Below, in pieces: positions 10,916-63,509 of a stretch of DNA of 64,000 nucleotides. Position numbers and translations under genes: made by a program. This DNA comes from a virus. Taxonomy: Duplodnaviria; Heunggongvirae; Uroviricota; Caudoviricetes. How positions within the stretch are numbered: the stretch's first letter is position 1; each line of letters begins with the position of its first letter. A model generated the notes under the pieces. It was given only the letters and a program-made list of their open reading frames with translations. It ran no database searches and was not told where the DNA came from. The stretch is taken from the IMG/VR virus record IMGVR_UViG_3300046507_000639, positions 64,001 through 128,000 of that record. One strand, written 5' to 3'.

Positions 10916-11435
10916 ACTTCTCTACTCCCTTGGGTTTCTTGGGCGGCGACTTCTTCTTCTCGAACTTCGCCACGTAGGACGCAGCCTTCTCGTCGTCGAT
11001 CGTGACGGTCTCACCAGTGCCGCCGAGGCTCATCTCGATGGACATGTTGACGAGCGACATGTGCTTGATGTACGACTGCTTCTTCTCTTTCTCGATGCGA
11101 CGGAGGAAGGCGAACCAGACGATCTGCGTGAAGTACGCGAAGGGGTTGCTGAACCTGTCGGGGTCGAACGAGTGGTAGCCGATGATGCAGTTCTCGATGC
11201 CGTCGCCGACCATCTCTGCCCGGAAGGAGTAGCCTGAGAAGTTTGGTCGGCTCGCCAGTCTCTCGGCTATCTTCATGAAGCACTCGCCGACGTAGTCAGG
11301 TATCCTCGGAGGCTCTGAGTTCCGCTTCTCTTCGGTGTGTTTCTTCACGGCCTCCCTGTGCTTTACGATGGCCGCGTAGAAGTCCTTGTTGTTGACGTAA
11401 TATTTTTTCTTAATTGCCACTGATCTTGAAACCAC
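10887..11435 (-). CDS. gp55: Late-transcription sigma factor
   Basis: YVNNKDF, GECFMKIAERLASRPNF, NPFAYFTQI...AFLRRIEKEKKQ. Start could alternatively be GTG 11420. Confidence 0.93.
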   Translation of the reverse strand: MVSRSVAIKKKYYVNNKDFYAAIVKHREAVKKHTEEKRNSEPPRIPDYVGECFMKIAERLASRPNFSGYSFRAEMVGDGIENCIIGYHSFDPDRFSNPFAYFTQIVWFAFLRRIEKEKKQSYIKHMSLVNMSIEMSLGGTGETVTIDDEKAASYVAKFEKKKSPPKKPKGVEKFVDKGVSKD

Positions 11436-52783: not shown

Positions 52784-53218
52784 ATGGCGGCGTACCGGCA
52801 GGGCTTCTTCAAGCCACGCAACCCAAAGAAGTACAGGGGCGACCCGACCCGGATCGTGTACCGGTCCTCGTGGGAGCTCAAGTGCATGCAGAAGTTCGAC
52901 GAGCACCCCGACGTCGTCGAGTGGTCCTCGGAGGAGCTGATCGTGCCGTACATGGACGTGAGCTCGGGCAAGCAGCGCCGGTACTTCCCTGACTTCATCG
53001 TCAAGAAGGCCGACGGCACCACCTTCATGGTGGAGGTGAAGCCCGAGAAGGAGACACACCCTCCCGCGCTGAGCAAGAAGAAGACGACGAAGTACCTGCG
53101 CGAGGTGCTCACGTGGGGCACGAACTCCAGCAAGTGGAGCGCGGCAGAGGCCTACTGTAAGAGACGCGGGTGGATCTTTATGGTCATGACTGAGAAGGAC
53201 ATATTCGGTGCCAAGTAG
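52784..53218 (+). CDS. gp4: Head completion nuclease (TnsA-like PD-(D/E)xK)
   Basis: Y.G.FKP.NP.KY.GDP..IVYRSSWE, WSSEE..+PY, RYFPDF, +VEVKP, N..KW.AA..YC. Confidence 0.93.
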   Translation: MAAYRQGFFKPRNPKKYRGDPTRIVYRSSWELKCMQKFDEHPDVVEWSSEELIVPYMDVSSGKQRRYFPDFIVKKADGTTFMVEVKPEKETHPPALSKKKTTKYLREVLTWGTNSSKWSAAEAYCKRRGWIFMVMTEKDIFGAK

Positions 53219-53807
53219 CATTTTCACGAACATACTCCAGGACGCCGCGCGCAGCAACGTCAGCGCCGCCTCGAAGGGCGAGGAAGCGCGCAAGTGGTTC
53301 CGCAACAAGGCGATGGAGATCAAGAAGGCCGACACCAAGCGCATCCTCGCGAACTCGCAGGACCGCTACCGTCAGTCGATGGTGCCCGGCACGATGTACA
53401 TGTTCTACTACGACCCGAAGTACAAGAACGAGCTGCCGTTCTACGACCAGTTTCCTCTCATCTTCCCGCTCTCGGTCGAGAAGGACTCCATCCTGGGCAT
53501 CAACTTCCACTACCTCCAGCCGGTGCTCCGTGCTAAGCTCATGGACGCGCTGTACACCCACGTGACTAACGAGAAGCTGACCGACACCGCGAAGATGCAG
53601 ATATCGTACAAGATCCTCAAGGGCGCGAGCAACTTCAACCTCGTGAAGCCGACGATCAAGAGGTACCTGAAGACCCACGTGCGTTCTCGCTTCGTGAAAG
53701 TGTACCCCAACGAGTGGGACGTAGCAATAATGCTTCCGCTGCAGTCGTTCGTCAAGGCGACTCCGAACAAAGTGTGGGCCGAGTCACGCAAGATAGCAGG
53801 AGTCTGA
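53208..53807 (+). CDS. gp2: DNA end protector protein
   Basis: G.MY.F.YDPKYK..LP+YD.FPL+, G+NFHYL.P..R, KP.+K.YL..HVRS, W..A+.LP...F. Confidence 0.93.
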   Translation: MPSSIFTNILQDAARSNVSAASKGEEARKWFRNKAMEIKKADTKRILANSQDRYRQSMVPGTMYMFYYDPKYKNELPFYDQFPLIFPLSVEKDSILGINFHYLQPVLRAKLMDALYTHVTNEKLTDTAKMQISYKILKGASNFNLVKPTIKRYLKTHVRSRFVKVYPNEWDVAIMLPLQSFVKATPNKVWAESRKIAGV

Positions 53808-53808
53808 C

Positions 53809-54576
53809 GTGCCCTTCGACATCAACGAGCTGAGCTCAAACGTTAACCGGTACGGCGGACTCGCCCGACCCAACAGGTTCTCCCTGTTCATAGCCACGCC
53901 GCCCTGGTCTAACTCCCAGGACGAGAGCCGGCTGATCGAGGTCTTCTGTGACTCGGCGTCGCTGCCGGGCATCACGTTCGCGACGAACGAGGTGAAGAAC
54001 CTCGGCTACGGCCCGACCTTCAAGCTGCCCCACACTCCCATCTACACCGACATCGACGCCACCATCATGCTCGACAACGACGGCGTCATCCTGGGCTTCT
54101 TCCAGAAGTGGGTGCAGAACGTGATGAACGTGAACCCTGACGGCGCTCCCTCGACGTCAGGCTACAACGGCGCGAGGATGTACGCCGTGCAGTACCCGTC
54201 GAACTACGTCACGAACGTCTCGATCATCCTGTACGACGGCGAGGCTAACACCATCGTCATCTACACGCTCAACGAGGCCTACCCTCTGCGCATCGGTCAG
54301 CCGACCCTGGACTGGGCCGCGAACAACCAGGTGCTCAAGCTTCCCGTGACGTTCACGTACAGGACCTGGACCTCGACGCTCTTCGCGGCCAACGACCAGA
54401 CGCTCGAGGAGAGCCTGGCGACGTTCGACCCGTTCGCCTCCACGCTCTCGGGGTCGCTGTTCAACACGACGACTTACTCGTACATGTCGCTGGGACAGGC
54501 CCTCGCGTCCACCGCGATATCACTGATAAATAATGACGGCAACTACAGTCAGAACCTACTGAACATATTTAATTGA
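53809..54576 (+). CDS. gp54: Baseplate tail-tube initiator
   Basis: GGLARPNRF, C..ASLPG, FF..W, Y..+Y.L.EAYP..+...L.W, L.VTF.YR.W. Confidence 0.82.
   Translation: MPFDINELSSNVNRYGGLARPNRFSLFIATPPWSNSQDESRLIEVFCDSASLPGITFATNEVKNLGYGPTFKLPHTPIYTDIDATIMLDNDGVILGFFQKWVQNVMNVNPDGAPSTSGYNGARMYAVQYPSNYVTNVSIILYDGEANTIVIYTLNEAYPLRIGQPTLDWAANNQVLKLPVTFTYRTWTSTLFAANDQTLEESLATFDPFASTLSGSLFNTTTYSYMSLGQALASTAISLINNDGNYSQNLLNIFN
54525..54532 (+). promoter_or_regulatory. Embedded late promoter GATAAATA
   Basis: In the gp54 3' end, upstream of gp26. Confidence 0.6.
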
Positions 54577-54584
54577 GGACGTGA

Positions 54585-55295
54585 ATGACACTCCCTAAGA
54601 TACAGTCTCCCACCTTCCGGCTCAAGCTGGCGTCCGACGGCACCGAGGTCAAGTACCGCGGCTTCCTCGTGAAGGAGGAGAAGATGCTCCTCGTGGCGAA
54701 GGAGTCTGACGAGAAGAAAGACCTGATCGACGCTTTCAAGCAGATCGTCTCTAACTGCGTGGTGGGCGACATCAACGTGGACTCGCTCCCGCTGTTCGAC
54801 CTCGAGTACCTCTTCCTGATGATCAGGTCGAAGTCCCAGCAGAACATCGCCAAGGTGAAGTTCCGCGACGAGGAGGACGCCAAGGAGTACGACGCGATCT
54901 TCAACTTCGACAAGGTCGAGGTGAGGAGAGACCCGGAGCACGACAAGACGATCGACCTCGACGGCCGAGTCGGAGTCGTCATGAGGTACCCCACGATACG
55001 GGACCTCGAGGCGCTCAACCTGTTCGACGAGGCGACCGCGCTGAAGGGCGAGTCGGTCATCGAGCTGATCAAAAAGTGCATCGACGCGGTATACGACGAG
55101 GACTCGGTGCACCCGATGTCAGAGGCGACCGACGCCGAGAAGGACGAGTTCTTCGACTCGCTGTCGGGACACTACATCGAGAAGCTGCAGAAGTTCTTCT
55201 CGACGTTCCCGGTCGTGGTCGGCTACGTCGAGTACAAGAAGGGTAACAAGATCATCAGCCGAGAGATCAGGGGTGCCGCTAATTTTTTAGCGTGA
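54585..55295 (+). CDS. gp26: Baseplate hub subunit / assembly protein
   Basis: LPKI..P.+.L.L.S.G..VKYR.FLVKEEK.LL+A.ES, LP.FD+EY+FL.IR.KS, +.MRYP, IE..FF.T.P-like tail. Confidence 0.88.
   Translation: MTLPKIQSPTFRLKLASDGTEVKYRGFLVKEEKMLLVAKESDEKKDLIDAFKQIVSNCVVGDINVDSLPLFDLEYLFLMIRSKSQQNIAKVKFRDEEDAKEYDAIFNFDKVEVRRDPEHDKTIDLDGRVGVVMRYPTIRDLEALNLFDEATALKGESVIELIKKCIDAVYDEDSVHPMSEATDAEKDEFFDSLSGHYIEKLQKFFSTFPVVVGYVEYKKGNKIISREIRGAANFLA
55283..55289 (+). promoter_or_regulatory. Candidate -1 ribosomal frameshift heptamer U_UUU_UUA
   Basis: gp26 codons AAT TTT TTA GCG TGA; the -1 frame reads TTT TTT AGC GTG AGC CTC into gp51. Confidence 0.65.
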
Positions 55296-55468
55296 GCCTC
55301 GCGCACATAAGCCTGCCGAGCTACTACCAACTGAACTTCGTGCTGCACCGACACGACTACTCGACCGAGGAGGTCGAGAACTGGCTGCCCTACGAGAGAG
55401 ACATCTACGTGGGGCTGCTGCTACAACACCTAGAGAAGACGAAGAATGCTTCCAACGCCGGCGCCTAG
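55292..55468 (+). CDS. gp51: Baseplate hub assembly catalyst
   Basis: Absent from the ORF track. (M/V)SLAHISLPSYYQLNFVLHRHDYSTEEVENWLPYERDIYVGLLLQHLE matches the gp51 pattern L..YY..NF.L.....YS..E+EN..P+ER.IY+.LL. Confidence 0.85.
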   Translation: MSLAHISLPSYYQLNFVLHRHDYSTEEVENWLPYERDIYVGLLLQHLEKTKNASNAGA

Positions 55469-57179
55469 GCCGCCTGAGACCAGCGGTAAACAAGACGGCA
55501 CTGCCTCGTCGGCGACGGGCGGGGTGTTCGACTACATCTCGGTCATCACGTTCCAGGGCTACCTGACGCAGAGGCAGATCCTGCTCAACACCAACACCAT
55601 GGTGAAGCAGCTCGGGTCGCTCATCAACTTCTTTAAAGACAGCAGCGTGCGGGCGTCCCAGGACCAGGAGGAGCAGAACCTCGACAAGCCGAAGCCGACG
55701 TCGTCCAACAACGGTGACGGCCTCGTGGGCGCGATCAAGGACGGCATCGGGTTCATAACGGTCAAGGCCGCGGTGCTCGCGATCGCGACTGCCATCACCC
55801 TCCTCTCTGACGAGATACAGCACACCGTCCGCGAGACTGTGGCGTACCTCACGCTCGCACGTAAGCAGACCTTTGACGCCGTGAAGGCTCTCCCCGAGGT
55901 CATCGTCAGCACGGTAGAGTTCGCGGCCCTCACGGTCGGAAAGGTCATCGGCCTCGCGCTGAGGACCTTCGGCGTCACGACCGAAGGCTTCATCAAGGGC
56001 ATCGACTTCCTGCTCCACTCGGCCGTCACCGAGCCGTTCATCAAGGCCTTCACCACGATGTTCGAGATAGTCGGCGGCATAGCCAAGGCTGTGTTCAGCG
56101 TCGTGGACGTGTTCCTCCGGCCGATGCTGTCCCTCTTTGAGGGCATAGGTAAGCTCGGCCTCTCGGCCCTCGAGCTCGTGGCCAAGGGCGCCGGCAAGAT
56201 CTTCCTGCCTCTCCAGATCTTGCTCAGCGCCATCGACTTCATCAGCGGCTTCATCGAGGGCTACGAGCGCTCGGGCGTAGAAGAGGGCATCAAGACCGGC
56301 CTGGTCAAGGTGTTCGACGGCCTGTTCATCGCGGTCATCGACATCGCGAAGAAGTTCGTGGCGTGGGTGCTCGACTACATCGGCCTCGACAACCTCGCGA
56401 AGTCCCTCACGCGTGACGTAGACCTCATCATCGAGGACCTGCGCGGAGTATTCAAGTCCATCATCGAGGTGTTCGCGGGACTCGTGAAGTTCGACGGCAA
56501 GCAGGTCTGGGACGGCCTGAAGACCGGCTTCACCGACCTGCTCTCGCTCATAGTCCACAGCGTGACCGGCTCTATCAACCTCGTCGTCAACTTCTTCAAG
56601 GACGTGTTCGACCTCGGCGACGAGCCGTTCGACATCCTCAAGTCTGACTTCGTCAACTCCATCCTCGAGACCCTCAAGGAGTTCGCTAAGGGCGTCGTCG
56701 AGTGGCTGAAGGACTCCCTGCGCAGCGCCCTGACGAGCGTCGCGGGCGAGGGCATCGCCAACAAGGTCCTCGGCGCCAAGGAGGTGTCAGAAGAAGACGT
56801 CAACAAGAAGGCCGACCAGGTGGCGCGCGACCGCGTCACGTCGAGCATGAGCAACGTCGAGAAGTTCGCGGCCCAGCAGGACGACTACAAGCACCTCAAG
56901 TACGAGGTGACTCCCGACGACGTGGCCCAGGCTCGGAAGCAGCTCCAGGACTCGGGCTTCAAGGTCGACGACAACGTCAAGATCGACGACCAGCAGTTCT
57001 CAAAGATAGAGAAGATCCTGAACGACGCCAGCAAGGCCCCGCAGACCAGGGGCGGCGACGTGAACATCAGCAACACCCGCATAACGAACGGGGGCGGTGG
57101 TAGCCGCCCCGTGATAGTTCCGATACCGATGCAGGAGAAGGCGTCGCAGTCGAACCCGACCCGACGCAGCGGCAACTGA
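55446..57179 (+). CDS. Tape measure / tail-length determinator (gp29-like)
   Basis: 577 aa, long amphipathic A/G/F/L-rich helices, directly after gp26/gp51, with a C-terminal NN....N.....P-like tail. Confidence 0.7.
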   Translation: MLPTPAPRPPETSGKQDGTASSATGGVFDYISVITFQGYLTQRQILLNTNTMVKQLGSLINFFKDSSVRASQDQEEQNLDKPKPTSSNNGDGLVGAIKDGIGFITVKAAVLAIATAITLLSDEIQHTVRETVAYLTLARKQTFDAVKALPEVIVSTVEFAALTVGKVIGLALRTFGVTTEGFIKGIDFLLHSAVTEPFIKAFTTMFEIVGGIAKAVFSVVDVFLRPMLSLFEGIGKLGLSALELVAKGAGKIFLPLQILLSAIDFISGFIEGYERSGVEEGIKTGLVKVFDGLFIAVIDIAKKFVAWVLDYIGLDNLAKSLTRDVDLIIEDLRGVFKSIIEVFAGLVKFDGKQVWDGLKTGFTDLLSLIVHSVTGSINLVVNFFKDVFDLGDEPFDILKSDFVNSILETLKEFAKGVVEWLKDSLRSALTSVAGEGIANKVLGAKEVSEEDVNKKADQVARDRVTSSMSNVEKFAAQQDDYKHLKYEVTPDDVAQARKQLQDSGFKVDDNVKIDDQQFSKIEKILNDASKAPQTRGGDVNISNTRITNGGGGSRPVIVPIPMQEKASQSNPTRRSGN

Positions 57180-61635: not shown

Positions 61636-62205
61636 TCAGTGTATGTCGAGCGCCCCGCGTAGGGCGTCTCTGTATTTATACAAATCGACTTCGAGGAATG
61701 ACGAATATTTTTTCAAATTGAAGTAGACTTGCGGCCACACCACGGCGTCCTCTATCTTCGCGTTCCAGTGCGGTGCGAACTTGAGTATGCCGTTGAGTAG
61801 TATGACCGTCTCTCGGTGGACCTCGCCGCGCAGCATCGCCTTGAGCAGGGGAGGGTGCTCCCCTCGCTTGACAGTGAAGTTTGAGTCGAAGTCCGGGTCG
61901 AGCTTCTTGACGTCCTCGGTGAAGACGTAGTTCAGGGAGGTGACGACCTTCTTCCACTCCTTGTAGACGGAGTCGTCGGAGGTCACGTCACCGATCCACG
62001 CGTTGGGGTTCTTCGACAGGTGGGCCACTAGGACCGCGTGCGGGTCCCTCTGCTTGGCGAGCTTCTCGAACTGGAAGCGGTCGCCCCTCTTCTCGTAGGA
62101 AGAGTACTTGGCGTTCACCTTTCCGCTGTAGCGGAAGTAGTCGTAGTCAGAAGTGAAGTGGCGTTTGAGCGCCAGATAATCAATGTATACTTCGAACGGG
62201 GAGAT
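61636..62205 (-). CDS. gp59: Helicase loader; conserved N-terminus begins at ATC (no ATG/GTG/TTG)
   Basis: The frame extends upstream of the ORF-track start as ISPFEVYIDYLALKRHFTSDYDYFRYSGK; HP.LLK..L.G.+..ET+++L+, +.KY..F. Confidence 0.85.
   Translation of the reverse strand: MSPFEVYIDYLALKRHFTSDYDYFRYSGKVNAKYSSYEKRGDRFQFEKLAKQRDPHAVLVAHLSKNPNAWIGDVTSDDSVYKEWKKVVTSLNYVFTEDVKKLDPDFDSNFTVKRGEHPPLLKAMLRGEVHRETVILLNGILKFAPHWNAKIEDAVVWPQVYFNLKKYSSFLEVDLYKYRDALRGALDIH
61673..61680 (-). promoter_or_regulatory. Late promoter for gp32, embedded in the gp59 3' end
   Basis: Exact TATAAATA. Confidence 0.7.
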
Positions 62206-62650: not shown

Positions 62651-62728
62651 TGGTGCCCGGCGTGGGGCTCGAACCCACGACATTCCCATTTTAAGTGGGA
62701 CGACTCTAACCAACTGGCCTAGCCGGGC
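62651..62728 (-). tRNA. tRNA-Leu(UAA) with a short variable loop
   Basis: GCCCGGC/GCCGGGC acceptor stem, A73-CCA, UCCCA-CU-UAA-AA-UGGGA, T-arm GUGGG-UUCGAGC-CCCAC. Confidence 0.82.
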
Positions 62729-63430: not shown

Positions 63431-63509
63431 TGGTACCCGACCACGGAGTCGAACCGTGATGCACCTCGCTTTGAGGGAGGCGGCTTTACCGAGGTTTGCC
63501 TAGTCGGGC
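63431..63509 (-). tRNA. tRNA-Leu(CAA) with a short variable loop
   Basis: GCCCGAC/GUCGGGU acceptor stem, A73-CCA, loop CU-CAA-AG (C31.C39 mismatch), T-arm CACGG-UUCGACU-CCGUG. Confidence 0.75.

Follow-up and report, generated by a model that had tools for sequence, protein, structure and literature searches.

The tail chaperone gene of an uncultured, high-GC, T4-like phage very likely contains a functional programmed −1 ribosomal frameshift, a reading to which we give a probability of roughly 0.85. The frameshift signal is shown in the DNA; the slip itself is inferred, with no protein or ribosome-profiling data. The DNA analysed here, referred to as the window, is a stretch of 64,000 nt (bases 64001–128000) of a 135.8-kb IMG/VR record with an estimated completeness of 79%, and the GC content of the window is 59%.

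Results

A slip-prone heptamer at the 3′ end of the gp26 homolog

Four plus-strand genes lie in a row, the first of which is the DNA end protector gene (53208–53807). It is followed on the same strand by the tail tube gene (53809–54576; PF23849, E 2e-13; phrog_45, E 9e-36), the gp26 homolog (54585–55295), the 58-aa gp51-like ORF (55292–55468; phrog_634, the PHROG of gp51, E 6e-18) and a tape-measure-like gene of 577 aa (55446–57179; best PHROG match phrog_1272, E 1.8e-8). Read in the zero frame, the gp26 homolog gives a short product of 236 aa, which matched phrog_150 (E 5e-55) and, over residues 9–235, PF12322 (E 4.3e-47; 161 bits against a cut-off of 24.5). The order of tail tube, gp26, gp51-like and tape-measure-like genes is that of the G/GT position. 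The 577-aa protein matched several PHROG tape measure families, and BLASTP gave no significant match between it and T4 gp29 (E 0.44). The tape measure label therefore rests on the PHROG matches, the size and the position.

The 3′ end of the gp26 ORF reads GCT AAT TTT TTA GCG TGA. It includes the heptamer T_TTT_TTA (55283–55289, plus strand) in the slip-prone X_XXY_YYZ register, with UUU in the P site and UUA in the A site, and the zero-frame TGA (55293–55295) is located one codon past the A-site codon. In the −1 frame, a TAA (55280–55282) directly 5′ of the heptamer sets the 5′ limit of the shift window, and the frame is then open from 55283 to 55465 and closes with TAG at 55466–55468. The heptamer occupies the 10-nt gap that separates this TAA from the zero-frame TGA, and because the TAA stands right before it, the heptamer fills the sole stretch where a slip could join the two frames. 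A tandem slip at this site is predicted to yield a 294-aa protein (54585–55289 joined to 55289–55465) with the junction ...GAANFLSVSLAH. The −1 frame extension, which is the gp51-like C-terminal domain, consists of 59 codons and the TAG (55289–55468), and its end overlaps the tape-measure-like gene by 23 nt (55446–55468). The start of this last gene lies in the zero frame of gp26.

The heptamer is spelled in codons that are rare in this phage. In the 43 confident genes of the window, AAT accounts for 2.9% of the Asn codons, TTT for 4.6% of the Phe codons and TTA, with 5 occurrences in total, for 0.4% of the Leu codons. From this codon usage, the probability that N-F-L is spelled AAT TTT TTA was calculated to be about 5e-6. 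TTT was used for none of the 13 Phe codons in the remainder of the window gp26. When 46 genes were searched, 20 in-frame X_XXY_YYZ sites were obtained, and this heptamer was the only one composed solely of T or of A. The 64-kb window has three T6 runs; the other two (11403–11408 and 61708–61713) are in locally AT-rich DNA near gene ends.

A first-pass annotation, made from the sequence alone, had pointed out the heptamer, its register, its rare codons and an open −1 frame that is the gp51 frame, and all of these statements held. So did its names for the two ORFs, gp26 (PF12322 and phrog_150) and gp51 (phrog_634), its placing of AGGGGT 8 nt before the heptamer, and its junction peptide, which matches the predicted ...GAANFLSVSLAHISLPSYY. 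It had further stated that the GTG of gp51 is without a properly spaced Shine-Dalgarno (SD) sequence; this also held, and an overlap of the GTG with the stop as GTGA is nonetheless present.

Conservation of the putative slip site among relatives

Loci of gp26 were gathered from IMG/VR, JGI and ENA metagenomes, one MAG contig and isolated phages. Complete junctions were obtained for 240 loci, of which 216 were distinct, and the isolates counted include S-RIM14, phiN3, Moby, KVP40, S-8S55 and MA10. The scans of metagenome and genome contigs yielded only relatives of 42% identity or less. An in-frame T_TTT_TTN located 6–30 nt 5′ of the stop was present in 215 of the 216 distinct junctions. The check proposed by the first-pass annotation, conservation of the heptamer at gp26 3′ ends, was thus clearly positive. 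The last base of the heptamer (n = 215) was C in 140, T in 65, G in 6 and A in 4. The codon preceding the run was GAT, AGT, TCT, AAT, GCT, ACT or GGT, so that the wobble base before the run was invariably T under six different amino acids. Past the stop, the −1 frame was open for 52–75 codons in all 216 junctions, and the +1 frame closed at a median of 5. A stop one codon after the A-site codon was the commonest layout (115 of 215 junctions). Among the homologs, the slip site and the frame relation are kept beyond what protein coding needs.

Four further isolates outside the count of 216, namely Aeromonas phages PX29 and G2, Rhizobium phage IG49 and Desulfovibrio phage 7757, have GAT or AGT followed in frame by TTT TTC, and in each of them the −1 frame encodes the gp51-like domain. 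In the record of G2 (Aeromonas phage vB_AdhaM_G2, L252:3205-3373) the −1 ORF after AGT TTT TTC is unannotated, and elsewhere the gp51-like ORF is labelled as hypothetical or as a separate 'hub assembly catalyst'. A joined coding sequence was annotated in none of the public records examined.

The sole junction without the heptamer was that of Salmonella phage SS9 (Ackermannviridae; L087:3260-3470). Its gp26 ends with GAG ATT TTC ATT TAA, so that a U_UUC tetramer is retained in the register of the heptamer, and its gp51-like domain again lies in the −1 frame, in a stretch left unannotated in the record.

Most relatives are AT-rich, and for these composition alone predicts NNT TTT at a rate of about 30%. 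The high-GC cases therefore weigh most. One of these is a second high-GC T4-like phage on an IMG/VR contig of 123 kb with 64% GC (L218; junction at L218:3160-3363), whose gp26 is 37% identical to that of the window. It has a pure T_TTT_TTA, in GAT TTT TTA, and TTT is used for none of the 11 Phe codons in the rest of its gp26.

Comparison at the DNA level covered two of the nine closest relatives, both from IMG/VR. In the first (L283; 70% identical, 59% GC), AAT TTT TTA GCG TGA is kept within a run of 26 identical bases, while the third positions of the gene are 64% identical. The second (L284; 53% identical, 41% GC) has CAT TTT TTA TAA, and its domain has no start codon. GC content had been considered as the cause of UUA and was dropped, since L284 uses UUA at 41% GC. 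The C-termini of the other close-relative proteins are NFL, SFL or HFL, and two proteins whose DNA was not seen (P0008 and P0010) end with NFM, a sequence that no T_TTT_TTN can specify. Heptamers of the form U_UUU_UUY slip efficiently in E. coli, where U_UUA is a weak shifter as compared with U_UUC or U_UUU (PMC4066793). The weakness of U_UUA in E. coli counts against a slip in the window; it also fits the preference of the family for a final C or T, and makes the clade of the window the unusual one.

These data bear on two alternative explanations of the T run. The first is that a single 294-aa gene was split, either by a sequencing error in the homopolymer or by a genuine frameshift mutation. 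Homopolymer runs are error-prone, and three metagenome fragments (P0139, P0071 and P0049) continue in frame from the body of gp26 to the gp51-like domain across ...NFF/LLILSH...; these may be natural variants or homopolymer length errors. Against this explanation, independent assemblies and cultured phages show the same −1 split, in 215 of 216 distinct junctions, and so do the four isolates outside the count, so that artefact or decay is all but excluded.

The second is transcriptional slippage, in which RNA polymerase inserts or omits a U while copying the T run and some mRNAs encode an in-frame fusion. About 30% of the relatives have runs of T7 to T9, on which polymerase slippage is likelier, and UUUUUUU is reported to be under-represented in every frame, possibly owing to polymerase slippage (Sharma et al.). 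However, the run is exactly T6 in the window, L283, L284 and L218, and T6 followed by C in 140 of 215 junctions, and T6 is shorter than the runs known to give efficient polymerase slippage. In addition, the run always begins at the third base of a codon, which is relevant to ribosomes and not to polymerase. We consider transcriptional slippage very unlikely, and a slip of the ribosome remains the preferred reading.

Possible separate start of the gp51-like ORF

A third explanation is that the gp51-like ORF is translated as a separate 58-aa protein by termination-reinitiation at GTGA, and that the T run merely represents the codons of a conserved Phe-containing motif. The GTG at 55292 overlaps the TGA stop (55293–55295), an arrangement that could permit coupled restart. 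Furthermore, the small ORF is annotated as a gene of its own in the public records of S-RIM14, phiN3, Moby, KVP40 and PX29, and some ATG, GTG or TTG is present near the start of the domain in 40 of 66 distinct relatives.

Several observations speak against this explanation. In the window, there was no Shine-Dalgarno-like run in the 16 nt 5′ of the GTG. In the interval from the −1 frame stop to the aromatic motif conserved in the domain, 26 of the 66 distinct loci have no ATG, GTG or TTG, and 48 have no ATG; an SD was almost never present at the candidate small-ORF starts of these loci. Where the heptamer lies 30 nt 5′ of the stop, the conserved −1 frame sequence (…LSH…) begins right after the heptamer. 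A conserved Phe motif by itself would explain neither the rare codons of the heptamer nor the T at the wobble position, invariant under six amino acids, and T4 retains Phe-Phe without a T run. T4 gp51, described below, shows the domain working as the C-terminus of a gp26-like protein.

The separate-protein explanation is therefore considered very unlikely, and independent initiation is probably not the general mechanism for the gp51-like ORF in this family. It remains possible that a free 58-aa product is made by coupled restart in the window phage, which we cannot exclude. For the family as a whole, the fusion by a −1 slip is the reading that we prefer. The extension belongs to a family with 2,272 representatives among 1.84 billion proteins, and nearly all of its best 150 homologs had been called as small ORFs.

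Relation to gp26 and gp51 of T4

In T4, gp26 (208 aa) and gp51 (249 aa) are hub assembly chaperones (Leiman et al. 2010, PMC3004832, Table 2), encoded by separate, divergently transcribed genes. An alignment profile was built from the predicted fusions and compared with the two T4 proteins. T4 gp26 was matched over profile positions 11–237, ending at the junction, with 78 bits. T4 gp51 was matched over positions 22–280 with 42–48 bits, in one colinear stretch across the junction, and the profile of the extension matched gp51 residues 209–244. This colinearity is shown by the alignments, and it places the small domain at the end of a single gp26-like chain in T4.

The same relation was observed independently in the PHROG families. 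Both T4 proteins are in phrog_150, in which gp51 covers the additional positions 236–280. The window gp26 covers positions 5–214 of this family, and the 58-aa ORF matches positions 243–278 of 282. Some members of phrog_150 thus carry both parts in one chain, of which the match of the small ORF to this profile had been the first sign. By the profile alignment and the PHROG placement, T4 gp26 corresponds to the short form and gp51 to the long form.

The T4 pair therefore resembles the predicted products of the window phage in that gp26 aligns with the short form as far as the junction, and gp51 with the predicted fusion in full. It differs in that T4 has two separate, divergent genes and no slippery run, whereas the window phage has one gene and a slip. 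T4 serves as a natural control: its gene 26 ends with GAG TTC TTT GAG TTA CTA TAA, which still encodes Phe-Phe but interrupts the T run. Conversely, the window phage has no single ORF, as T4 gp51 has, for the gp26-like body and the C-terminal domain. Body and domain are in different frames and would be joined only by a −1 slip. The layout of one gene plus slip is found inside Straboviridae too, in KVP40 and Aeromonas phage PX29.

Predicted structures of the two forms

The AlphaFold2 model of the 236-aa product had a pLDDT of 86 and a pTM of 0.82. Its structural matches in BFVD were gp26 proteins of many myoviruses, with TM values of 0.75–0.79. In an all-against-all structural search of 48,161 PDB representatives, the top three chains were 3fgx (Z 8.0), 2ob9 (Z 7.4) and 3klu (YqbN; Z 6.6), followed by a chain with Z 5.3. 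All three matched on residues 1–90, and values of 6.6–8.0 are middling for this tool. The 2ob9 chain is the HK97 tail assembly chaperone; 3fgx and 3klu are uncharacterised proteins that the literature treats, alongside 2ob9, as homologs of chaperones. Foldseek of the gp26 model against the PDB gave no meaningful match, and a search of the PDB with the gp26 sequence profile found nothing. Since the Z values are moderate and the Foldseek search was empty, the match of the predicted N-terminal fold to the HK97 chaperone is supportive and not decisive. The extension was predicted to form three helices (pLDDT 79).

The four Cys residues of T4 gp26 and of the family consensus, arranged in two CxxC-like pairs, are absent from the window gp26. 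They are also absent from its close relatives (P0006–P0014), which makes their loss a feature of the clade, and the curated definition of the Pfam family does not include them. A putative metal site would therefore be dispensable in this clade.

Possible stimulators and the phage tRNA-Leu(UAA)

No stimulatory RNA structure was detected downstream of the heptamer, which counts against the frameshift reading. In the window, the folds of the 48–121 nt past the heptamer were no stabler than those of shuffled sequences (z −0.4 to −0.8). Conserved downstream structure was not found in the clade either, where the consensus of three sequences gave −1.6 kcal/mol and L284 was unfolded.

On the 5′ side, the SD-like AGGGGT (55269–55274, plus strand), is a possible stimulator, and both of its codons, AGG (14.7% of Arg) and GGT (11.3% of Gly), are minor ones. 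About two thirds of the relatives have GGAGG, GAGGG, GAAGG or AGGG 8–10 nt 5′ of the heptamer. The first-pass annotation had cited internal SDs as stimulators of −1 slips. Because the spacing is common to about two thirds of the relatives, such a role is plausible here; nevertheless, the run cannot be distinguished from conservation of a Gly codon, RNA-level selection was not shown, and the internal SD stays no more than a possible stimulator.

The UUA codon in the A site would be read by a phage tRNA-Leu(UAA), which was found by ARAGORN at 62651–62728 on the minus strand and is one of 17 tRNA matches in the whole record. Its link to the frameshift is untested. The tRNA has 78 nt and a variable loop of 5 nt; such a short loop is unusual for bacterial tRNA-Leu. 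As it is unlike the long-armed bacterial tRNA-Leu, its charging identity is uncertain. A tRNA-Leu(CAA) of 79 nt is located at 63431–63509 on the minus strand, and its length suggests a short variable loop too. A tRNA-Leu(UAA) was not found in L218 (11 tRNA matches; 74% complete) or L283 (23% complete), which is uninformative.

The first-pass annotation had proposed that this tRNA could tune the ratio of the two products. The existence of the tRNA held, and the tuning remains speculation. A bolder reading, in which the supply of tRNA-Leu(UAA) sets the frameshift ratio in this clade, is unlikely on the present evidence. Equally doubtful, and resting on analogy with HIV-1, is the idea that the share of the long chaperone could shift during infection as the phage tRNA accumulates. 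In favour of a role for the tRNA, no sense codon of the genome is rarer than the A-site UUA, UUA is kept in the clade member with 41% GC, and T_TTT_TTA is also present in the unrelated L218.

Discussion

A −1 frameshift is described as conserved in the tail assembly chaperones of long-tailed phages 'except T4' (Atkins et al. 2016, PMC5009743), one case being the conserved gpG/gpGT frameshift of lambda (Xu, Hendrix and Duda 2004, as summarised in PMC5009743). We found no report of a gp26/gp51 slip in the literature searched, most subscription journals being outside the search. The first-pass annotation had inferred that gp26 and gp51 of the window are a pair of the G/GT type, and this inference is supported by the gene order, the conserved heptamer (215 of 216 junctions), the correspondence of T4 gp26 and gp51 to the two forms, and the moderate N-terminal fold match.

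The window genes resemble lambda G/GT in several respects. The pair lies between the tube gene and the tape measure gene, an X_XXY_YYZ heptamer is placed a few codons before the stop, the −1 extension is short, and the predicted N-terminal domain has a moderate match to the HK97 chaperone in 2ob9. On the other hand, there is no detectable sequence similarity to the lambda proteins, the heptamer of the window is U_UUU_UUA, and the window protein is longer (236 aa), with extra domains past residue 90.

The heptamer itself is identical to that of HIV-1 gag-pol, with the rare UUA in the A site. On this U UUU UUA in HIV-1, the abundance of tRNA-Leu(UAA) picks between two slip routes (Korniy et al. 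2019, PMC6547452). HIV-1 differs in using a eukaryotic ribosome and a downstream stem-loop, whereas no conserved structure was found for the window phage, and the window phage itself carries a tRNA-Leu(UAA) gene. With E. coli dnaX, the window shares a purine-rich SD-like run 8–10 nt 5′ of the heptamer, a spacing that stimulates −1 slips in dnaX. However, dnaX has A_AAA_AAG and a strong downstream hairpin, and the SD-like run of the window coincides with a conserved Gly codon.

In the mechanism that we propose, the majority of ribosomes would reach the TGA of the gp26 homolog and release the 236-aa protein. A minority would slip back one base on U_UUU_UUA (55283–55289) while the P site holds tRNA-Phe and the A site, at the rare UUA, is empty or occupied by tRNA-Leu(UAA). 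Translation of 59 further codons in the −1 frame would then produce the 294-aa protein, whose C-terminus is the gp51-like domain of three predicted helices. On the model of lambda G/GT and T4 gp26/gp51, the tape-measure-like protein would be bound by the part common to both forms, and a second contact, required for initiation of the hub and tube, would come from the extension. The ratio of short to long form would be set by a fixed slip rate. The occurrence of the slip, its frequency and the binding partner of each form are all inferred.

If the slip is real, T4-like phages obey the rule of the long-tailed phages, and one reported exception to it is removed. The ancestral state would be one gene plus slip, kept in cyanophages, rhizobiophages, KVP40 and Aeromonas phages, and T4 would be the derived case, in which the two products were split into genes 26 and 51. 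The annotation would be corrected in hundreds of phage genomes, where the small ORF is separate, hypothetical or uncalled. It would also give gp26 and gp51 a testable job, as chaperones of the tape measure protein.
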